From assembly GCA_049287205.1 (NCBI GenBank), contig JBAQFJ010000001.1, positions 943,653 through 1,007,652 on the forward strand: 64,000 bases of DNA, written 5' to 3'. A model generated the notes under the pieces. That model did no database searches. It saw only the letters and a list, made by a program, of their open reading frames with translations, and was not told the origin of the DNA. Shown piece by piece: positions 5,982-63,971 of the stretch (the stretch's first letter is position 1; every line of letters begins with the position of its first letter). The DNA is from Microgenomates group bacterium (GTDB lineage: Bacteria > Patescibacteriota > Microgenomatia > UBA10105 > UBA927). Made by a program: the position numbers and the translations under genes.

Positions 5982-8123
5982 ATGGATAAAGCGTACATCC
6001 CAAAATCATTTGAAGAGACGATCTATTCCTCGTGGGAACAGGATGGGTATTTCTCGCCGAAAAAAGAAGCAGGAAAAGATCCATTCTGCGTTATTCTTCC
6101 CCTTCCGAACGCAAACGGTGATCTTCACTTGGGGCATGCCATGTTTACGATTGAGGACATCATGATTCGGTATCACCGGATGAAGGGCGACGTTACGTTA
6201 TGGCAACCAGGATTTGATCACGCGGGTTTTGAGACGCAATATGTGTTTGAAAAATTTTTAGCAAAACAGGGAAAAAGCAGGTTTGACTACTCGCGGGATG
6301 AACTGTACAAAGCGATTTGGGATTTTGCTCAGTCTAATCGTGGCAGCATGGAATCACAACTTCGGCGTATGGGGTTTTCCTTAGATTGGCCGAGACTGAA
6401 ATTTCCACTCGACCCCGCAATCATCGAAATCGTGTATAAAACATTCAAAAAAATGCATGACGATGGACTTGTCTATCGTGGAGAACGGCTGGTAAATTAC
6501 TGTACAAAATGCGGCACAAGTTTTTCGGATCTTGAAGTGAAACATGTGGAACAAATTGATCCCCTGTACTATCTGAAATATGGACCGTTTGTACTTGCAA
6601 CAGTCAGGCCTGAAACAAAATTTGGTGATACTGCAGTGGCAGTTCATCCGACAGACAAACGATATAAAGACTATATCGGAAAAGACATCACATTTGATGG
6701 ACTTATCGGTCAGGTGACGCTCCATGTGGTTGCTGATGAAGCGGTGGATCCTGCGTTTGGCACAGGTGTCGTGAAAGTCACTCCTGCACATGATATGACG
6801 GACTATGAAATCAGCAAACGTCATAATCTCCCACTCGTGCAGGTGATTGGATTTGATGGGAAATTGACTGCCGTTACCGGTCCATATACGGGACTTCGCG
6901 TCAAAGCGGCGCGCGCAAAGGTTGTTGAAGACCTTACGGCAAAGGGACTCATTGATCACATAGATGAAGGATATGTGCATACGGTTGGAACGTGCTATAA
7001 ATGCCAAACAACGTTAGAACCACTTCCTATGTCTCAGTGGTTTGTAAAAATCAAACCGCTTGCAGATCGTGCGATTACTTCTATTACAAAAAAAGAGGTG
7101 TCATTTGTTCCAAAACGATTTGAAAAAACAGCAACCCAGTGGCTCACTGACTTTCATGACTGGAATATCAGCCGTCAAATTGTGTGGGGTATACGAATTC
7201 CTGCATGGCGCTGCGAAAGCTGTGCAAAAACGAATCCTGAGAATGAATGGATTATTACTGAGGGAAGTATTCCTGAAAAATGTCCGCATTGCGGCGGAAC
7301 AACGCTACAACAGGATGAAGACGTATTTGATACCTGGTTTTCCAGTGCACAGTGGCCGTTTGCGACCTTGCAGGCAAACAGTGAAAAATCGGATTTTGAA
7401 ACATTCTATCCGACATCGGTTATGGAAACAGGCTATGATATTTTACCGTGGTGGGTATGTCGTATGCTCATGGTGGGTCTTTATGTGACAGGTAAAGTTC
7501 CATTTAAAAAAGTGTATCTTCATGGGTTAGTTCGAGACAGTAAAGGTCAGAAAATGAGTAAAAGCAAAGGCAATGTAGTTAATCCGATTAAAATGGTGGA
7601 TTTATATGGTGCAGACGCTCTTCGTATGGCACTCGTGTTTGGAGCGGCAGCCGGAAATGATATATCCCTTTCTGAAGATAAGATTCGCGGCATGCGGAAT
7701 TTTGCCAATAAATTATGGAATATTTCCCGTTTGTTTTTGATGAATACCGAAAACAGTAAAGATCTCCTTTTTTATGATAAAACCATGAATAAAGATTTAG
7801 TGAAGAATGATCTAGAAATGCTAAAAAAACTTGAGGCAACTGTAAAAACGACAACAAAATATATGGATACGTACCGATATTCCGATGCGGCGCAAACACT
7901 GTATGATTTTACATGGCATACACTTGCTGATGAATATCTGGAACAGAATAAAGAACGATTTAAACAAGGAGACACACAAGCGCTTGCTGTCTATCGTCAT
8001 GTGCTTCTGGTTGTACTCAAACTTCTCCATCCATTTATGCCGTTTGTCACTGAGAGTATTTGGGGTCAATTACCACGAAAACAAGATACAAAACTGATTA
8101 TTTCTTCGTGGCCAACCGTATAA
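5982..8123 (+). CDS. valS: Valyl-tRNA synthetase (short form lacking the C-terminal coiled-coil)
   Basis: PNANGDLHLGHAMF (HIGH motif), WQPGFDHAGFETQ and KMSKSKGN motifs. Length 713 aa. Confidence 0.8.
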   Translation: MDKAYIPKSFEETIYSSWEQDGYFSPKKEAGKDPFCVILPLPNANGDLHLGHAMFTIEDIMIRYHRMKGDVTLWQPGFDHAGFETQYVFEKFLAKQGKSRFDYSRDELYKAIWDFAQSNRGSMESQLRRMGFSLDWPRLKFPLDPAIIEIVYKTFKKMHDDGLVYRGERLVNYCTKCGTSFSDLEVKHVEQIDPLYYLKYGPFVLATVRPETKFGDTAVAVHPTDKRYKDYIGKDITFDGLIGQVTLHVVADEAVDPAFGTGVVKVTPAHDMTDYEISKRHNLPLVQVIGFDGKLTAVTGPYTGLRVKAARAKVVEDLTAKGLIDHIDEGYVHTVGTCYKCQTTLEPLPMSQWFVKIKPLADRAITSITKKEVSFVPKRFEKTATQWLTDFHDWNISRQIVWGIRIPAWRCESCAKTNPENEWIITEGSIPEKCPHCGGTTLQQDEDVFDTWFSSAQWPFATLQANSEKSDFETFYPTSVMETGYDILPWWVCRMLMVGLYVTGKVPFKKVYLHGLVRDSKGQKMSKSKGNVVNPIKMVDLYGADALRMALVFGAAAGNDISLSEDKIRGMRNFANKLWNISRLFLMNTENSKDLLFYDKTMNKDLVKNDLEMLKKLEATVKTTTKYMDTYRYSDAAQTLYDFTWHTLADEYLEQNKERFKQGDTQALAVYRHVLLVVLKLLHPFMPFVTESIWGQLPRKQDTKLIISSWPTV

Positions 8124-28311: not shown

Positions 28312-29628
28312 ATGCGAATTATTGCCGATCTTCATCTTCATTCACGATTTTCTAGGGCCGTTTCCCGTGAGATGACCATAAAAAATTTGTACGCTTCGGG
28401 TGTCCGAAAAGGAATAGGTCTTATTGCAACGGGAGACTGGACACATCCCTTATGGATGGGTGAAATTGAAAGTGAACTGGAAGAGATGGGAAACGGATTT
28501 TTGCAGCTAAAAGGAACAACGGAAGGTCCAAAATTTTTGCTTTCCACTGAAATATCCTGTATTTTTTCCCAGAATGGAAAAACAAGACGGGTGCATACTC
28601 TTATCTGGGTTCCAACCATTGCCTCAGCGATCAAAATCAGCCAGGAAATTACTAAACAGGGTGGTAATGTACTTTCAGACGGAAGGCCAATTTTAGGGTT
28701 TACCCTGATTCGCCTTGCTGAACTTGTGTTGACCATTGAGCCTAAGGCTCTTATAGTGCCTGCACACATTTGGACGCCGTGGTTTTCTGTGTACGGGAAG
28801 ATGGGCGGATTTGACAGCCTAAAAGAAGCATTTGGAGAATATGAAAAATATATTTATGCGGTGGAAACCGGGCTTTCAAGCAGTCCTGATATGAACTGGC
28901 AAATTGGAGAACTTGATACCCGTTCTATCGTATCGTTTTCTGATGCACACAGCGGTCCAAAATTAGGAAGAGAGGCAACGATATTTTCTTTGCCTTCGCT
29001 GTCATTTGAGTATCTTACTGCGGCACTGAAAAATTATAAAAATAATCCGAAACTTCCACACATTGAATCAACCATCGAGTTTTATCCCGAGGAAGGAAAA
29101 TATCATTACACGGGGCATAGAGACTGTCATATTCGTTTGACGCCTAAAGAAGTCGAAAAAAAAGGAACAACCTGTCCTGTATGTGGGAAGCCGCTTACTC
29201 AAGGTGTGATGCAACGCGTTTCTGAGCTTGCAACGAGACCCCTCGCATCAAATAAGACAACAACAGATGGAATGAGTCATTATGAAAATGTCGGGCATGC
29301 ACGTCCTCCATTTATCATGTTGGTGCCACTTATGGAAATTATCGCCGAAGCTCTCGGCAGACCCGTCACGAGTCCGAGGGTTCAAGAGCGGTATGACGCG
29401 TTAATTAAGGAATTTACCAGTGATTTTGCTATTCTTATGCATGTCTCTATTGAAGAAATTGCCCGGGTATCACTTCCTGAAATAGCAGACGGAATTAAAA
29501 AAGTCCGTACAGGAGATATTGTAATTGATCCCGGATATGACGGGGTGTTTGGCGTTGTGAAAATCTGGAAAAGTGAAAAAGATAGGGATCTCGTCTCCGC
29601 TGCGGGAGAACAGGAAAGTATATTTTAA
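28312..29628 (+). CDS. Endonuclease Q-like PHP-domain nuclease (TIGR00375 family)
   Basis: ADLHLHSRFSRAVSREMT, GTGDW, RRVHTLIW, PAHIWTPWFSVYG, LSSSPDM and FSDAHSGPKLGRE motifs, plus C-terminal Zn-finger cysteines (HYTGHRDCH...CPVCGKPL). The pattern matches my recollection of archaeal EndoQ. Confidence 0.6.
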   Translation: MRIIADLHLHSRFSRAVSREMTIKNLYASGVRKGIGLIATGDWTHPLWMGEIESELEEMGNGFLQLKGTTEGPKFLLSTEISCIFSQNGKTRRVHTLIWVPTIASAIKISQEITKQGGNVLSDGRPILGFTLIRLAELVLTIEPKALIVPAHIWTPWFSVYGKMGGFDSLKEAFGEYEKYIYAVETGLSSSPDMNWQIGELDTRSIVSFSDAHSGPKLGREATIFSLPSLSFEYLTAALKNYKNNPKLPHIESTIEFYPEEGKYHYTGHRDCHIRLTPKEVEKKGTTCPVCGKPLTQGVMQRVSELATRPLASNKTTTDGMSHYENVGHARPPFIMLVPLMEIIAEALGRPVTSPRVQERYDALIKEFTSDFAILMHVSIEEIARVSLPEIADGIKKVRTGDIVIDPGYDGVFGVVKIWKSEKDRDLVSAAGEQESIF

Positions 29629-29736: not shown

Positions 29737-30069
29737 ATGGCGCAAACAAAAGCAAACAACGAAAATTTAATGGGCGCAGCAACATACTTGTTGGCGTTTG
29801 TTACCGGAATTATTTTTTTAATCGTTGAGAAAGAAAGCAAATTTATCCGGTTTCACGCAATGCAGTCAACCATCCTTTTTGGAGGAATTTTTATCGCAAA
29901 CATCGTCTTAGGATTTATTCCAATTTTAGGTTGGTTACTTGGTTTATTGTTGTCCCTCGCATCATTTATCCTTTGGATTATCTGTATGTGGAAAGCATTC
30001 CAAGGAGAAATGTACAAAGTACCATTTGTTGGTAATTTGGCAGAGCAACAATTAAAGAAAATGAAGTAA
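29737..30069 (+). CDS. DUF4870-family small membrane protein
   Basis: AATYLLAFVTGIIFLIVEKESKFIRFHAMQS motif. Confidence 0.6.
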   Translation: MAQTKANNENLMGAATYLLAFVTGIIFLIVEKESKFIRFHAMQSTILFGGIFIANIVLGFIPILGWLLGLLLSLASFILWIICMWKAFQGEMYKVPFVGNLAEQQLKKMK

Positions 30070-30155
30070 TGGATATCTCGCGAGATACCTATTCTCTATG
30101 ACACCACTTGCCTTGGAAGGGGAGTGGTGTTTATAGTAAGAGATAAGAAAGGGGT

Positions 30156-30788
30156 GTGCACATGAAAATAATTGTCGGACTTGGAAATCCCGGAAGTGAA
30201 TATCAAGATACGCGTCATAATATCGGGTTCATGACGATTGATAAACTGGCAAAAGAATTGACCCCGGAATCCGTTTCCTGGAAAGAAGAGGCAAAATTTA
30301 GCGCCATGACGACAAAAATTGGTGAAGTTGTTCTGGTAAAACCGATTACCTTCATGAATAATTCTGGCGTTGCCGTGTCTGCAATTATGCATTTTTTCAA
30401 ATTGACTCCCGCTGATGTCTGGGTGATTCATGATGATATTGATCTGCCGATTGGAAAAATTAGGATTCGCCAGAAGGGAAGCAGCGCGGGACATCGGGGC
30501 GTTGAGTCTCTTATTGCCGAACTTAAAACTGATGCGTTTGTCCGATTTCGTCTTGGTATCGGGCGGGGTAAGTTGTTTAGTAAAGGTGATTCGGATACGC
30601 AAGATATTGAAAAAGGAAACGCGGGGAAAGCGCAACACGGAAGGCATCAATGGGATATCTCATTTGTTCTTTCCAGGTTTTCTCAGGGAGAAGCGGGAAC
30701 GCTCAAACATTTGATTAAAAATGGAACGGAAGCCGTCCGTATTGCACTGAATGAAGGCATTGATAAGGCAATGACACGATTCAATTAA
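30156..30788 (+). CDS. pth: Peptidyl-tRNA hydrolase (with a C-terminal extension)
   Basis: MKIIVGLGNPGSEYQDTRHNIGF N-terminus. Confidence 0.85.
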   Translation: MHMKIIVGLGNPGSEYQDTRHNIGFMTIDKLAKELTPESVSWKEEAKFSAMTTKIGEVVLVKPITFMNNSGVAVSAIMHFFKLTPADVWVIHDDIDLPIGKIRIRQKGSSAGHRGVESLIAELKTDAFVRFRLGIGRGKLFSKGDSDTQDIEKGNAGKAQHGRHQWDISFVLSRFSQGEAGTLKHLIKNGTEAVRIALNEGIDKAMTRFN

Positions 30789-30822
30789 TCCGACCAATAA
30801 ATACCAATAAGTACCAATATAA
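30785..30822. repeat. Phased CCAATAA repeat block, copy 1 (AATCCGACCAATAAATACCAATAAGTACCAATATAATT) abutting a start codon
   Basis: Three about-10-bp-spaced CCAATA(A/T) units. Shares the 17-mer AATCCGACCAATAAATA and CCAATAAATACCAATAAG with copy 2. Confidence 0.6.
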
Positions 30823-30824
30823 TT

Positions 30825-31097
30825 ATGCAAAAAATGCAAAAGCTTGGTGACATTCTCCAGTTATTTAATCCTGTTGAGGATAAATACATTTCGCGTGAAT
30901 TTCAGAAATACGGTATCTATCTTGCGGAAACGTTGAACGATTATAAACATAGGGCGTTATATATTCGTCTTGCTAAAACTATCCCGCGTGCGATTCTTGA
31001 AAAAACGCTCAGCTTTGTAAAAGACGCAAATGCAACCAGCAAGCCGCGACTGTTTATGTGGAAAATGAAAGAGCTTAGACAGAAGGAAAAAGAATAA
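30825..31097 (+). CDS. Hypothetical 90-aa protein
   Basis: The ORF is bracketed by the two CCAATAA repeat blocks. No recognisable domain. Confidence 0.4.
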   Translation: MQKMQKLGDILQLFNPVEDKYISREFQKYGIYLAETLNDYKHRALYIRLAKTIPRAILEKTLSFVKDANATSKPRLFMWKMKELRQKEKE

Positions 31098-31099
31098 AC

Positions 31100-31152
31100 T
31101 AATAACCCAATAAATACCAATAAGCCAATAAATCAATCCGACCAATAAATAA
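31100..31152. repeat. Phased CCAATAA repeat block, copy 2 (four CCAATAA units) abutting the acylphosphatase start codon
   Basis: Sequence is AATAACCCAATAAATACCAATAAGCCAATAAATCAATCCGACCAATAAATAA. Confidence 0.6.
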
Positions 31153-31425
31153 ATGAAAACAATACGTCTTATTATTTCAGGGAGTGTGCAGGGGATAGGA
31201 TTTCGGAAATGGATCAAGCGACAAGCACAACGCGCGTCTGTAACAGGATGGGTTAAGAATAGGGAAGATGGGGCTGTGGAATCCGTTGTGCAGGGTGAAG
31301 CTGATGCAATTCAACAACTCATAATCCATATACATCAGGGCCCGCCGCTCGCGCTCGTAGAAGGTGTTTTTGAAGAACCAATAGAAGATGCTTCCAGATA
31401 TGAAGATTTTATCGTGATACAATAA
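31153..31425 (+). CDS. acyP: Acylphosphatase
   Basis: ISGSVQGIGFRKW motif and a 90-aa length. Confidence 0.75.
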   Translation: MKTIRLIISGSVQGIGFRKWIKRQAQRASVTGWVKNREDGAVESVVQGEADAIQQLIIHIHQGPPLALVEGVFEEPIEDASRYEDFIVIQ

Positions 31426-43310: not shown

Positions 43311-43383
43311 GGGCCCGTAGCTTAGCTGGTAGAGCGCATCATTTGCAATGATGAGGTCACCGGTTCGAATCCGGTCGGGTCCA
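43311..43383 (+). tRNA. tRNA-Ala (anticodon UGC)
   Basis: GGGCCCGUAGCUUAGCUGGUAGAGCGCAUCAUUUGCAAUGAUGAGGUCACCGGUUCGAAUCCGGUCGGGUCCA with a G3:U70 pair. Confidence 0.9.
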
Positions 43384-43935
43384 CAATAAAAAGTTCGTTT
43401 CGCGGGATAAGCGATTACTGAGTAATCTTTTATCTCGCGACAAGAGCGCGTCGTCGCGTAAACCGCGACAATAGCACTTTTACAATATCAATAGTATCTT
43501 CCTTTATAAATAGGACAAGGAAGATACATGGTTTTTTTGAATGAAATATGAGTAGTTACATCGTAAGGGATAATCTTAAATGTTGATTACCTGTTACGAT
43601 GACATTTCGTTGGGCGACAATTTTTTTATTAAATGAGTCGAGAAAAATAGAGCAAAGCGCGCTAATTAATTTTAGCTCCTTTGTTCTCTGCAACGCTTTT
43701 AAAGTTGATAATGGATGCCCTGGGTATTCATGCCGAGGAAGGACGTATATGACAGCGATATTCGTCGGGGAGGAGTCATAATCCTGTGATCCGGCGGTTT
43801 CCGAATGGGGAAACCCGTCTAGTGAAGAACTAGTCAATGTACGATGAAGATAACCGAAAGGTTGGGATAGTCGTATGTAGGATACCGGGCGAACTGAAAC
43901 ATCTCAGTAGCCTGAGGAATAGAAATCAAGTACGA

Positions 43936-43967
<32 letters not shown>

Positions 43968-45684
43968 AAGTCTAAACCACAGCGCAAGTTGTGGGGTTGT
44001 AGGGCTTTCGATCTGGAATGCAATTGGTGATAACAGAATACCGTGGAATAGGAAACCAAAGAACGTGAAAGTCGTGTATGTGAAATTACCAATTCTCCTA
44101 GAGAGTTCCTAAGTACCATGGACCACGAAGGGTCTGTGGGAATCTGGGTCAACCACGATCCAAGACTAAATACATGAATGCACCGATAGTGAACAAGTAC
44201 CATGAGGGAAAGGTGAAAAGCACCCCGGAAGGGGAATGAAATAGTACCTGAAATTATCAACTAACAAACAGACGAAGTCCTGCAATCGCAAGATTTGGAT
44301 AACGTCGTGCCTATTGAAGAATGAACCGGCGAGTTGCCCAGTACGGCTTTGCTTAATCAAGTAACCCTTGAGGAGGCGTAGTGAAAGCGAGGTCTAATTG
44401 ACCGATTATGTTGTACTGGACAGACCCGAAACCAGGTGAGCTAACCATGAGCAGGGTGAATGTTGACGAAAGCCAACAAGAGGCCCGAACTCGTCAGAGC
44501 TGCAAATCTGTGAGATGACTTGTGGTTAGGGGTAATATGCCTATCGAACCTGGAGATAGCTGGTTCTCCCCGAAATATATTTAGGTATAGCGGTTACTAA
44601 TTCCCGGAAGGGGTAGAGCACTGAATGATACGTGTTTCGCAAGGAATACGCATCAATCAAACTCCGAATACTTTCCGTGATACCGTAACTAGTCAGACAT
44701 GCACGGCTAAGCGCGTGTGTCAAGAGGGCAACAGCCCGGACTTACATCTAAGGTCTCTAAGTGTGTGCTCAGTGGTTAAGGAAGTTATGAATTTAAGACA
44801 CCCAGGAAGTTGGCTCAGAAGCAGCCACCTTTTAAAGAACGCGTAACAGCGCACTGGATGAAATTCGTAGCGCCGAAAATGAACGAGGCTCAAGCACGCC
44901 ACCGAAGATTAAGATGTGCCGTAAGGCACGTGGTAGGGGAGCGTTCTGTTCTGCGGTGAAGGTTAGGCTGTAAGGCTGACTGGAGCGGACAGAAGTGAGA
45001 ATGCCGGTATGAGTAGCGTTTGGAAGTGAGAATCTTCCATGCCGAATGCGCAAGGTTTCCGAAGCAACGTTCGTCGACTTCGGGTAAGTCGGATCTAAGC
45101 CGAGGCCATTATTTTGATGGCGTAGGTCGATGTATAAACGGTTTATATTCCGTTACTATAGTGTATTGATTAAGACACAAAGGAATGACAATGAGGGATT
45201 TGTTGATGTCTCGCACTCGCGGGATCTAAGCATTAAAGTAGTGAGGACTGGTAAATCCGTTCTCATGTTTAACTAAAGATGTGGGGGAGTTTGAGGAGCA
45301 ATCCGATGACAACATCAATCGTTTCTTATTCGAGAAAAGTTTCGTTGTGAAATACATTGTATCCGTACTAATAACCAACACTGGTGCGCTGGTAGAGTAT
45401 ACCAAGGCAAGCGGGCGACAGCAGTTTAAGGAACTCGGCAACAAAAACTAGGTGTAACTTATTGGAGATACCTTACCTAGAGCAATCTAGGTCACAGTAA
45501 ACGACACTATGCAACTGTTTAACTAAAACACAGGTCTCTGCGAAGCGGAAACGCAACGTATAGGGGCTGACACCTGCCCAGTGCCGGTAAGTTAAAAATG
45601 GTCGGTAAACAAAAACGTAAGTTTTTTTAGCTGGCTTTTTAAGCTCCGGTGAACGGCAGCAGTAACTATAACTGTTCTATGGTA

Positions 45685-46292
45685 AATTTTCGTTGCTATA
45701 GTGAGGTAGACAAACCTCTCTTTTATTCCCCGTGCAAAAGGAAGGCGGGATAAAAGAAAAATTGTGCTAAATGCTGGAAACTCTGAGTATCTTGTGCTAC
45801 TATGTGTTATATGACACATAGTGAAAAAGCATCAAGTGCAGACAATCAGCAGGAAAGATTGGATCCGTGGTGGATTGTAGGATTTGTTGATGGAGAAGGA
45901 TGTTTTTCCGTTAGTACGTTTAAAAATTCAACTTGTTCAAGTGGGTTTCAAACTCTTTATGAGTTTGTGGTCACACAAGGAGAAACGAGTAAACGAGCTA
46001 TGGAAGCAATCAAAACTTATTTTGGTTGCGGAGCGATTTATATAAATCGCAGACATGATAACCATCATCACGATCTTTTACGATATTGTGTACGAAAGCA
46101 GGAAGATTTGAAAACAAAAATCATCCCGTTTTTCAGAAAATATCCATTACAATCTGCAAAACAAGAACAATTTGAGACATTTTGTCAAAAATTGTTTGAT
46201 CCAAAATCCTCAACGACTATACGCACAACTCGGTAAAACGAGAAGATATAGTCTGATCTTCATGGCGACATGAAGTTAACAAATTTTTATGA
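45685..46292 (+). other. Group I intron in 23S domain IV, after GGTA and before GCGAAATTCC (E. coli ~1931 site), carrying a LAGLIDADG ORF
   Basis: The exon sequence is interrupted between ...AACTGTTCTATGGTA and GCGAAATTCCTTGTCGGG. Boundaries are accurate to within 1-2 nt. Confidence 0.7.
45802..46236 (+). CDS. LAGLIDADG homing endonuclease (single-motif, I-CreI-like), intron-encoded
   Basis: VGFVDGEGCF motif. Located inside the 23S intron. Confidence 0.8.
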   Translation: MCYMTHSEKASSADNQQERLDPWWIVGFVDGEGCFSVSTFKNSTCSSGFQTLYEFVVTQGETSKRAMEAIKTYFGCGAIYINRRHDNHHHDLLRYCVRKQEDLKTKIIPFFRKYPLQSAKQEQFETFCQKLFDPKSSTTIRTTR

Positions 46293-46912
46293 GCGAAATT
46301 CCTTGTCGGGCAAGTTCCGACCCGCACGAAAGGTAGAATGACATAGTGACTGTCTTAAACTGTTACCCGGCGAAATTGAAATGGCTGTGAAGATGCGGCC
46401 TACTCACACATGGACAAAAAGACCCCATGAAGCTTTACTGCAATTTGGCACTGAAGAGTTTATTTTAACTGTCGAGTATAGGTGGGAGCCTTCGGGCGAA
46501 CAATGGAATACCACTCTTTAAAATGAATGAATCTTACTTACTCCTACATAAAAATCTAGGAGCAGGACACTGTCTGATGGGCAGTTTAACTGGGGAGGTT
46601 GCCTCCAAAAGTGTAACGGAGGCGTGCAAAGGTTGGCTAATCCTGAATGGAAACCAGGACGTGTCGTGCAAACGCGATAAGCCAGCTTGACTGCGAGACG
46701 TACATGTCGAGCAGATGCGAAAGCAGGCGTTAGTGATCCTCGATACCCTCGTGGGAGGGTTCGGGCTTAACGGATAAAAGCTACTCTGGGGATAACAGGC
46801 TGATCGCTTCCGAGAGTCCATATCGACGAGGCGGTTTGGCACCTCGATGTCGGCTCATCCTATCCTGGGGCTGTAGAAGGTCCCAAGGGTCCGGCTGTTC
46901 GCCGGTTAAAAG

Positions 46913-46948
<36 letters not shown>

Positions 46949-47310
46949 AGACCTTAGTGGAATAGACGCCACTATAACGAGCTGTCCATCCTTTACCGTT
47001 CTAGAATCTTTGTATATCGAGAAATTTTAAAGGATCCCGCAAAACAATACTAATTATATTGAATGCGGGAATAAATCTGACTAATTGCTGGAAACACTCA
47101 GTATCTAATACTACTTTTAAAAAAAGTAACAATGTATTAGTGGAGTCAATCAGCAGGGAAGGCCCCGCCTTGGCGGGGAACCCTCAGAGACTATATGTCA
47201 GATCTGGCTTCGCCAGAAAGATATAGTCCGAACTGTATGGCGACATACAGACTGCAGCAGAAATGCGTGCAGAGTCGTTTTTACATCAAAAAACGATATT
47301 AACATTATTG
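46949..47310 (+). other. ORF-less group I intron in 23S domain V, inserted after GAGACAGT and before TCGGTC (E. coli 2593 / I-CreI-type site)
   Basis: The exon resumes with TCGGTCTCTATCC...CTAGTACGAGAGGACCG. The intron ends in G. It shares an AAGATATAGTC...ATGGCGACAT core-like block with intron 1. Confidence 0.7.
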
Positions 47311-47754
47311 TCGGTCTCTATCCTGTGTGAGCGTTCGATTCTTGAGGGGAGTTCTCTCTAGTACGAGAGGACCGAGAGGAACAGATCCCTGGTTTGCCTG
47401 TTGTCACCCTGAGAGGTGGCACCGCAGGGTAGCTAGATCTGGAAGGGATAAGTGCTGAAAGCATCTCAAGCACCAAGCCCACCCCAAGATGAAGAATCGT
47501 TGAAGATCCGTTGTAGATGACAACGTTGATAGGCGAGAAGTGTACGCACCGTGAGGTGTTCTAGCTTACTCGTACTAATTGATCGAATGTTGTGGAGAAC
47601 AAAGGAAGATTTGTTCTATTCCCAAACGATATGAACATCGCCTCTGGGATCAGCAACAAGATTATCCCTTATGTGTAATTACTCATTCAAAAAGTGTGAA
47701 TATTGATATTAACAATTAAATATTGGTAAAATAGCGAATCGAGAACCGCTCTAG

Positions 47755-62671: not shown

Positions 62672-63971
62672 CGTATACGTTCATTCCCGTTGTTGTATTG
62701 GTGTATAGATTTACAAATTCATTTTCAAACAAGACATTGTTTGGTTGAAGAAATTGTTCCGGGGTACGGGAAAGTTCTATATACCCGATATGGTACTTTT
62801 GCAATAAATAACATGCTTTTTCTTTGTTGGTTGCTTCATAAATGGATTTTTGCTGCATTTCCCGTTTTGTCTGATTATATCCGTATGACCATGTAAAGTA
62901 GGTATATCCCGCAAATATTTTTCTTCCGGCAAGAGACGCCGGGTGATAGAGCCATGTGCTGTTTAAAATAACGGCATCAGGCGGAGTGTTGGTGCGGAAA
63001 AATTCTACATCCCGGTTATTAGGCGCATCCTGCATCGATCCTTTTGTTTCATTGAAAATAGGGAACAGATCAATGATGCCGGAAAGAGTTAAAATAAATG
63101 CCAATAAGCCAATAACCCAATAACTTAATATACGGATGATTTTAGATGAAGATTTTTTGAGCCAGTCAAAGATTTTGACCAATCCATGTGCGGTAAGTAA
63201 GTTGCCGACGATAATAAAAAAATTAAAGAATTTGTGATTATTGATCATATCAGGAGAAAACCGCCACAGATTGGGTGCAATAAACAGTAGCAGTAAGGGA
63301 ACGATGAACAGAATTTTAACTTTTTTTGGTGCGACAATGAATCCGAAGGGAATCATAACAAACGAAAGTCCGAGATTTTGCCACCAAAATACCACAATGG
63401 AACGCAGTGTGAGCGGATTGTGCACAAGATAGCCTGGATCAAAGGTGATAGTACCAGACAAGCCAATAAGCTTTGTATACACGAAAATACTTGGAATACT
63501 GATGAGTGCGGCACAAAGGAGGGGGATACGAGATTTTTTTTGTATGATGCAGATCCACAGAAGCCAAATTCCTGCAATAAGGGCAGCTGCTTGGTTTAAA
63601 AAAAGCAGGGTAATCATGGAGAGTGCAATGCTGCAGGAGAGCAGGAATCTATGGACTTTTGACTGCATGGTATTTGTCTTGAGTGTAAGCAGTATTGTTA
63701 TGAGTACCAGTGCATACGACAATCCAAGATGTCGTTGATTTGTATAGATATTCATTGTCCAGAATGCGCTTACAAGTCCTCCATCCCACGGGCCGAATGC
63801 CGGAAACGCGGTATTTGTGACAATATCCTGCAGTGTATGGGATGAAAGCGGATGTTTTTCAAAAAATCGTACAAAGGACAGTGACCCATTAAAACAAAAA
63901 AGGAGTACGGCAATGGTTGCAGTTGCATAGCGAGAGAACAGTTTTTTTGCCATGAGTGCAATGGTAAGCAT
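62631..63971 (-). CDS. Polytopic membrane protein, putative GT-C-like glycosyltransferase (may extend beyond the window)
   Basis: About 10 TM helices plus a C-terminal soluble domain. It overlaps the downstream GT-C gene by 41 nt. Confidence 0.4.
   Translation of the reverse strand: MLTIALMAKKLFSRYATATIAVLLFCFNGSLSFVRFFEKHPLSSHTLQDIVTNTAFPAFGPWDGGLVSAFWTMNIYTNQRHLGLSYALVLITILLTLKTNTMQSKVHRFLLSCSIALSMITLLFLNQAAALIAGIWLLWICIIQKKSRIPLLCAALISIPSIFVYTKLIGLSGTITFDPGYLVHNPLTLRSIVVFWWQNLGLSFVMIPFGFIVAPKKVKILFIVPLLLLFIAPNLWRFSPDMINNHKFFNFFIIVGNLLTAHGLVKIFDWLKKSSSKIIRILSYWVIGLLAFILTLSGIIDLFPIFNETKGSMQDAPNNRDVEFFRTNTPPDAVILNSTWLYHPASLAGRKIFAGYTYFTWSYGYNQTKREMQQKSIYEATNKEKACYLLQKYHIGYIELSRTPEQFLQPNNVLFENEFVNLYTNTTTGMNVYDVAQSCNYHETTN

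Follow-up and report, generated by a model that had tools for sequence, protein, structure and literature searches.

CCAATAA repeat arrays abutting the start codons of orfX and acyP in a Microgenomates bacterium, with a possible role in translation initiation

Repeat blocks on either side of orfX

The window analysed here, a stretch of 64,000 nucleotides (nt) from contig JBAQFJ010000001.1 of a Microgenomates group bacterium, contains two short blocks of imperfect CCAATAA repeats. The blocks lie in the spacers on both sides of orfX, a gene for a conserved orphan protein of 90 amino acids (aa) located between pth (peptidyl-tRNA hydrolase) and acyP (acylphosphatase). The G+C content of the window was 41.6% and the nearest relatives of orfX are labelled Gottesmanbacteria. 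The host is a Gottesmanbacteria-like bacterium of the Microgenomates, within the Candidate Phyla Radiation (CPR, Patescibacteria). The features of the locus are as follows.

30162-30788, + strand: pth (peptidyl-tRNA hydrolase), first gene of the putative operon; Pfam PF01195, E = 3e-59; 208 aa in the calls of relatives
30789-30824, + strand: pth-orfX spacer with block 1; 36 nt, period of 10 nt, 2 G in 36 nt
30825-31097, + strand: orfX, 90-aa conserved orphan protein; no Pfam or NCBIfam family
31098-31152, + strand: orfX-acyP spacer with block 2; 55 nt, 2 G in 55 nt
31153-31425, + strand: acyP (acylphosphatase), 90 aa, after block 2; Pfam PF00708, E = 5e-25

Block 1 is made up of TCCGA, CCAATAAATA, CCAATAAGTA, CCAATATAAT and a final T, and block 2 reads A CTAATAAC CCAATAAATA CCAATAAG CCAATAAAT CAATCCGA CCAATAAATAA. 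Three CCAATA(A) units were found in block 1 and four in block 2, accompanied by degenerate ones. The unit was not a strict heptamer and consisted of a CCAATAA core followed by 1-3 variable bases. Both arrays are intergenic and lie on the coding strand in forward orientation. Tandem Repeats Finder (TRF) reported an array at 30793-30819 in block 1 (period 10, 94% matches) and another at 31093-31149 in block 2 (period 8, 67% matches), against only 0-2 tandem arrays in each shuffled window. The duplicated 17-mer and 18-mer of the original prediction were recovered as exact copies at both blocks. The 17-mer AATCCGACCAATAAATA occurs at 30787-30803 and 31135-31151, and the 18-mer CCAATAAATACCAATAAG at 30794-30811 and 31107-31124. 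At ≤3 mismatches, the 18-mer produced 4 matches versus 0.10 expected, a number reached in 0 of 100 shuffles and thus beyond chance. The CCAATAA heptamer itself showed no enrichment across the window (21 copies versus 14.05 expected), but 6 of these are concentrated in a stretch of 370 nt.

The unit starts of block 1 (30794, 30804 and 30814) are spaced by 10 and 10 nt and the lag-10 autocorrelation was 0.62 (p = 0.004), whereas those of block 2 (31107, 31117, 31125 and 31142) are spaced by 10, 8 and 17 nt with no significant periodicity (p = 0.26). The helical phasing proposed for the blocks therefore holds for block 1 and fails for block 2. The blocks also come closer to the start codons than the 2-3 nt first given: block 1 ends as CCAATATAAT-T-ATG (30825), i.e., 1 nt before the ATG, and the 17-mer in block 2 ends 1 nt before the ATG at 31153. 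None of the Shine-Dalgarno (SD)-like tetramers GGAG, GAGG and AGGA was present in either spacer, and the G content of the spacers (0.06) was the lowest of 49 upstream regions. Both blocks thus have the unusual start-codon context, with no conventional ribosome-binding site, that had been predicted. On the 5' side, the first two bases of the 17-mer overlap the pth stop codon TAA (30786-30788), and the stop-codon contexts TCAATTAA of pth and GAATAAA of orfX resemble the repeat unit.

Apart from these arrays, neither the 64-kb window nor ~500 kb of related loci showed a non-coding CCAATA cluster. A third cluster of CCAATAA in the window (63101-63123, + strand; CCAATAAG CCAATAAC CCAATAAC, 8-nt period) was considered as another copy of the element and rejected. 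This stretch is coding DNA of a minus-strand membrane-protein gene and encodes a conserved helix, the transmembrane segment YWVIGLLAF, with no change in length compared to 14 homologues. It appears to be a coincidental look-alike. Overall, judged on their sequence, the two blocks are homologous, imperfect short tandem-repeat arrays that belong to one shared family of cis-elements.

Ancestry and conservation of the arrays

The database search showed more than 2,300 relatives of orfX, of which the best 120 were 77-100% identical. A scan with one genome per species, a set that lacks the source genome of the window, produced 80 orfX loci, or 85 when close relatives from an exact protein look-up were included (single loci are referred to by L numbers). 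pth was directly upstream of orfX in 60 of the 85 loci, mostly without repeats, and the order pth-orfX(-acyP) was kept across Gottesman-, Levy- and Woesebacteria. By these comparisons, orfX is an ancient, syntenic, single-copy gene. Where pth was upstream (60 loci), it was separated from orfX by ≤5 nt in 28 cases and by ≤15 nt in 36, and at the orfX/acyP junction an ATGA overlap or a gap of 1-7 nt was common.

The arrays were compared among species whose orfX was at least 91% identical to that of the window. The outgroups L205, L213, L217 and L206 have TAA-T-ATG or TAA-GGT-ATG upstream of orfX (1-3 nt) and 5-19 nt downstream of it. The upstream array was present in the window, L211, L003 and L207, with a length of 35-36 nt in these four species, and was absent from L212 and L210, where the spacer is 1-3 nt long. 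The downstream array was present in the window (55 nt), L207 (48 nt), L003 (64 nt) and L210 (31 nt), with unit-sized indels between them, and was absent from L211, L212 and L203, which showed an ancestral-looking ATGA overlap instead. The two arrays are independent of each other, as only the upstream one occurs in L211 and only the downstream one in L210. Distances at third codon positions grouped L207, L211 and L212 (clade A) and the window, L210 and L203 (clade B), with L003 standing alone. Because the junctions of most relatives are 1-5 nt long or an ATGA overlap, the arrays are derived insertions or expansions, confined to one small clade, in junctions that were short (1-5 nt) or overlapping in the ancestor. 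The reconstructed earlier state is one of tightly coupled or overlapping cistrons, between which the arrays were then inserted.

The pth-orfX spacer of L203 (2452-2500; = L219 and L204) is 49 nt long. A G+C-rich GCCCCGCCGGCAGG stands in place of units one and two, and of the array only the final unit, GTACCAATATAAGT, is retained. This spacer represents an array in decay or else a state before array formation.

Comparison of the window with L211 showed 45% third-position differences in pth and orfX, yet the 36-nt upstream array was identical (0/36). The array differed from that of the window at 2/36 positions in L003 and at ~3/36 in L207, with a third-position divergence of 0.43-0.45. Third codon positions served as the neutral proxy and were taken as a lower bound on the neutral rate. 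On this basis, the binomial probabilities for the upstream array were 4e-10 (L211), 6e-7 (L003) and 3e-6 (L207). For the downstream array, the window and L207 showed 7 mismatches in 47 aligned positions and one 8-nt indel (P = 2e-5). The flanking codons varied up to the edge of the array. Synonymous differences occurred within 6 nt of that edge, and a recent gene-conversion tract behind the array identity is unlikely for this reason. In the spacer upstream of pth, promoter and hairpin elements were conserved beside freely diverging positions, so that non-coding DNA is not generally slow-evolving here. The contrast between 0-3/36 differences in the array and ~44% third-position divergence implies that the arrays are under selection and are held nearly constant where present. 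The shared cis-element of the original prediction is thus borne out, in that the blocks are homologous and their near-identity between species points to selective constraint. Such near-invariance at near-saturated synonymous divergence argues that the repeats are functional and not slippage debris.

Three independent assemblies of the species (the window, L001 and L002) were identical over the stretch that each covers. L002 ends inside the downstream array, and of these two only L001 spans both arrays. With imperfect units and no change in copy number among the three assemblies, the arrays are not hypervariable and do not resemble phase-variable contingency simple sequence repeats (SSRs).

The start of orfX showed a 9-nt tandem duplication, ATGCAAAAA ATGCAAAAG (30825-30842), with two in-frame ATGs at 30825 and 30834. 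Of 20 aligned homologues, 9 start where the second ATG lies and 11 have an N-terminal extension of 3-4 residues. The duplication is common to the whole subclade, array-less species included. In the array-less species, the junction TAATATG gives a TAnnnT hexamer located 7 nt upstream of the second orfX ATG.

Short tandem arrays in related loci and known repeat systems

Microgenomates loci that include a full orfX (79 loci, 452 kb), in which gene calls were heuristic, were searched with TRF for non-redundant arrays with a period of 5-12 and at least 2.8 copies. The search produced 106 arrays versus 4-10 (about 7) in dinucleotide shuffles, a ~15-fold excess, and 67 of the 106 had a period of 7 where about 1.6 were expected. 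The array units varied by genome and some recurred, e.g., GTCTTAC, AGCTATC and AATTCAA. Roughly one array in two is in frame within a long conserved open reading frame (ORF), where it occupies a variable-length loop, as in the segment before the IAYTIEFYP motif of an MJ0043_C-family protein. Examples of arrays are L034 393-481, L017 695-997, L008 2516-2609 and L056 5308-5823. The richness of Microgenomates in 7-nt arrays, some of them in frame in protein loops, bears on variation in reduced genomes.

Some array-bearing ORFs considered as pth were found to be phosphoribosyltransferase genes; the in-frame arrays stand, for other genes. In the window, pth has a ~25-aa insertion after the RLGIG motif (GKLFSKGDSDTQDIEKGNAGKAQHGRHQWD, 30570-30650) which is kept in the subclade. 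The pth loop after RLGIG in the Levybacteria-like L077 and L080 is encoded by AATTAAA/AATTCAA heptamer arrays.

For non-coding arrays near a single start codon, 11 of 17 end ≤10 nt from the start. Array-bearing spacers were about threefold more frequent beside orfX (17/83) than elsewhere (18/241), with an odds ratio of 3.2-3.9 and p of 0.0003-0.002 over four ORF-length thresholds; the gene calls behind this comparison are crude and the loci phylogenetically non-independent. In a second clade (L006, L028 and L044, with L058 as a looser member), three to four copies of (G)TCTTAYNG stand directly before the orfX ATG, and these arrays (L006 2966-2994, L028 2621-2655 and L044 2973-3000) were kept despite saturated synonymous divergence. 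Finally, a metagenome scan for three consecutive CCAATAA units showed, among the matches listed (L083-L202), mainly perfect (CCAATAA)n arrays. These are widespread in contigs of unrelated organisms, of which some bear cyanobacterial hallmarks, and frequently abut arrays of other heptamers. Among the same listed matches, a gene start lay ≤30 nt from the non-coding array on the CCAATAA strand in 24 cases versus 7 on the opposite strand.

Of the systems described so far, the closest are the heptamer direct repeats (TAACTGA) known from marine Beggiatoaceae and also from some Cyanobacteria and Bacteroidetes (MacGregor 2015, PMC4679880). Those repeats occur in 2-6 copies per set, in forward orientation and a few nt upstream of start codons, usually without an SD sequence; their proposed role is translational and unproven, with binding of S1, Csp or CsrA-like proteins (PMC4679880). 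The CCAATAA arrays share with them a tandem unit of ~7 nt that includes a stop triplet, the forward orientation, the position directly against the start codon where a ribosome-binding site would be, and the lack of an SD sequence. They differ in the CCAATAA core with 1-3 variable bases and a period of 8-10 instead of a strict heptamer, in the presence of two sets in 64 kb, both around orfX, compared to 169 dispersed sets in BOGUAY (PMC4679880), and in the CPR host. In addition, insertion into formerly coupled junctions and conservation between species are seen for the CCAATAA arrays. A full-text literature search gave no report of such repeats in CPR/Patescibacteria. Start-abutting heptamer repeats are known in few bacterial groups, and the CCAATAA arrays extend the phenomenon to the CPR. 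Overall, the arrays match the TAACTGA-type anatomy in most respects, are real, beyond chance and selected, and have a plausible, putative role in SD-independent initiation within an operon.

Short tandemly repeated repetitive (STRR) heptanucleotides were reportedly described in cyanobacteria by Mazel et al. in 1990. A heptamer bias like that of the Microgenomates arrays was found for prokaryotic long simple sequence repeats (LSSR) of 5-11 nt, according to the summary of Mrazek 2007 in PMC4679880. Like STRR and LSSR, the arrays described here are heptamer-dominated, mostly non-coding tandem arrays with lineage-specific units. STRR and LSSR are usually longer, more perfect and dispersed, whereas the CCAATAA arrays are short, degenerate, sequence-conserved and, in the available sample, locus-specific. 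With 27-57 nt and 67-94% matches at two adjacent loci, they are not the long near-perfect arrays at many loci that define STRR.

In PMC9879509, the tandem repeats of Borg extrachromosomal elements are described as intergenic and in frame, where they give variable low-complexity protein segments. They are further described there as fast-evolving, of recent origin and nearly lacking in the host. The Microgenomates heptamer arrays in variable-length protein loops are similar to the Borg repeats, and the CCAATAA arrays differ from them in being old and shared by species with saturated synonymous divergence. Phase-variable SSRs were reported in Haemophilus (PMC12721329), and the AGAT repeats of Moraxella uspA2, as cited in PMC4679880, are phase-variable and lie between promoter and start codon. 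The CCAATAA arrays resemble such repeats in their location in the 5' region of a gene, where expression can be tuned. Unlike phase-variable SSRs, with their perfect units and strain-to-strain changes in copy number, they have imperfect units, were identical in the three assemblies and have kept the length of block 1.

Possible role of the arrays and surrounding features

With a probability somewhat short of even, the arrays are tentatively proposed to act as an unstructured, SD-less intercistronic platform for translation initiation, possibly bound by a single-strand RNA-binding protein. They would be transcribed as intercistronic RNA on a polycistronic pth-orfX-acyP mRNA, an operon for which the location of the three genes on one strand, the lack of terminator-like and promoter-like sites in the spacers and the conserved promoter-like region upstream of pth give support. 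The arrays would then replace translational coupling with an independent SD-less start. A G-poor, structure-free tract of A, C and U would end 1 nt before the AUG, and the ribosome could load directly on this tract by S1- or standby-type binding. Alternatively, 70S ribosomes could scan or re-initiate across the tract after termination on the upstream cistron; 70S scanning has been named as a mode of initiation (PMC9031893). A sequence-reading factor is postulated because a demand on composition would not by itself keep each base constant, and a single-strand-binding protein which reads the CCAAUAA units could be a cold-shock-domain protein, an S1-like protein or orfX itself. Cold-shock-domain proteins cover 6-7 nt and are reported to bind ATTGG/CCAAT 'Y-box' cores. 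The likeness of the stop-codon contexts of pth and orfX to the unit suggests that the arrays may have arisen by reiteration of these contexts. If the translational reading is true, the locus would provide a compact, testable model of SD-independent initiation inside operons.

Prediction of RNA structure showed that the region from -35 to +25 of acyP had the weakest structure of 49 genes, with a minimum free energy of 0.0 kcal/mol. No RNA fold better than shuffles was found in the spacers on either strand, and no Rfam family matched the arrays at the gathering threshold or at E ≤5. A pairing of UACCAA with UUGGUG around the start of orfX was considered and rejected, as it is not maintained in L003 or L207.

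Several points weigh against the initiation platform. The orfX initiation region was mid-ranked for lack of structure (-6.1 kcal/mol, rank 26/49). The start-proximal arrays of Microgenomates showed no G/C strand asymmetry (8 versus 8), and a G-poor leader is therefore not a general rule for the class. The presence of the arrays is patchy within clades, which needs several gains or losses, and close relatives manage with junctions of 1-5 nt or an overlap between these genes, which makes the arrays dispensable in principle. A need for no G and no structure would not demand near-identity, and hence the sequence-specific reader must be postulated. Finally, transcription across the arrays and use of the start codons are themselves inferred.

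A DNA operator or internal promoter is an unlikely alternative to the platform, in which the direct repeats would bind a regulator of double-stranded DNA (OmpR/PhoB-like or iteron-like) and a TATAAT hexamer would drive a short-leader orfX transcript. OmpR/PhoB-type response-regulator operators and plasmid iterons are direct-repeat binding sites, and block 1 resembles them with three direct repeats, a conserved 6-7-bp core and an exact 10-bp period that shows no indels in four species. Its strong sequence conservation is also as at protein-binding sites. The TATAAT hexamer (30818-30823) ends 1 nt before the ATG at 30825 and 10 nt before that at 30834, the latter within the 6-11 nt of the TAnAAT-to-start distances in the window. 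However, neither spacer showed a promoter-like or terminator-like site (a sigma-70-like -35/-10 pair or an intrinsic terminator), and block 1 misses the TGn extension of most putative promoters of the window. The hexamer is degraded in relatives (TATTTT in L207, TATAAG in L203), and block 2 has no TAnnnT or -10-like hexamer. The spacing of 10, 8 and 17 nt in block 2 and its unit indels between species would break helical phasing. Unlike OmpR/PhoB operators and iterons, the arrays have no promoter geometry and no cognate regulator or Rep gene adjoining the locus, where the neighbours are pth, orfX, acyP and membrane proteins. The iteron-like sites for one regulator that had been suggested thus keep the 10-bp period of block 1 and lose the promoter-like site and the adjacent regulator gene. 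The leaderless start suggested alongside them is likewise weakly supported, as both spacers lie between cistrons of an operon whose probable promoter region is upstream of pth, although the TATAAT of block 1 would suit a short-leader transcript of orfX.

It is quite improbable that orfX regulates itself as a small nucleic-acid-binding protein which binds the flanking arrays, on mRNA or DNA, and feeds back on the translation of orfX/acyP. orfX is 63-95% identical across lineages with unrelated units or no arrays, which misfits sequence-specific recognition, and the enrichment of arrays beside orfX is weakened by the crude gene calls and the phylogenetic non-independence of the loci. No Pfam, NCBIfam, PDB sequence or Foldseek match was found for the function of orfX. 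A wider form of this idea, which is considered highly improbable, is that orfX binds repeated single-stranded tracts on its own mRNA and that the CCAATAA blocks are operators of an unrecognised CPR translational feedback module. In such a module, orfX would be a universally conserved orphan of 85-95 aa whose fold resembles that of small RNA-binding domains, e.g., the PHAX RBD. Short tandem arrays would be kept by preference in the spacers beside orfX across Microgenomates, and the units would vary by clade (CCAATAA, GTCTTAC, CTCTAAA and others).

Functionless slippage, by which neutral simple sequence seeded by the stop-codon contexts would be tolerated as spacer DNA, has a similarly low probability to autoregulation by orfX. 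In its favour, arrays of 7-10 nt units arise all over Microgenomates genomes and can be in frame within protein loops. Many close relatives lack the CCAATAA arrays, the downstream one changes by entire units, and both stop-codon contexts resemble the unit. Against these points, near-identity at ~44% synonymous-site divergence is incompatible with neutrality in the four lineages compared, copy number did not vary among the three same-species assemblies, and the imperfect units are now poor substrates for slippage. A mobile or duplicated cassette, in which orfX moved with flanking direct repeats as target-site duplications or att-like sites, was also part of the original prediction and, although an exact 17-bp direct repeat brackets orfX and both orfX and acyP encode 90 aa, it was rejected as exceedingly improbable because orfX occupies a conserved syntenic position after pth that is mostly repeat-free across Gottesman-, Levy- and Woesebacteria, is unrelated to the acylphosphatase (it has no family), and is flanked by either array alone in L211 and L210.

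Upstream of pth, the following features were identified.

28312-29628, + strand: TIGR00375/MJ0043_C-family gene
29737-30069, + strand: DUF4870 membrane protein
30070-30140, + strand: conserved non-coding region upstream of pth, with a promoter-like match at 30108-30137

Three elements were recognised in the non-coding region, namely the imperfect palindrome GGATATCTCGCGAGATACC, the hairpin CACCACTTGCC...GGGGAGTGGTG and TTGCCT-18-TATAGT. The region hardly varies among 7 species, whereas neighbouring non-coding positions diverge, and is probably the promoter (or operator) of the operon together with the terminator of the preceding gene. Further small genes follow acyP on the same + strand.

Many genes of the window showed a (TGn)TAYAAT/TATACT box 6-11 nt before the ATG and no SD sequence, and others a clear GGAGG. 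Genes with such a box are at 5982, 16918(-), 20958(-), 21556, 31433, 51321, 52634(-), 55509(-) and 59978. The close TAYAAT boxes suggest that leaderless or very short-leader mRNAs may be frequent in the window.

At 3.9 kb, the 23S rRNA gene (43688-47597) is longer than its 2.9-kb model, and a group I intron lies within it at 46993-47250. Upstream of the 23S gene, a tRNA-Ala was found at 43311-43384 and no 16S gene. The window also carries a 5S rRNA gene and four tRNA genes.

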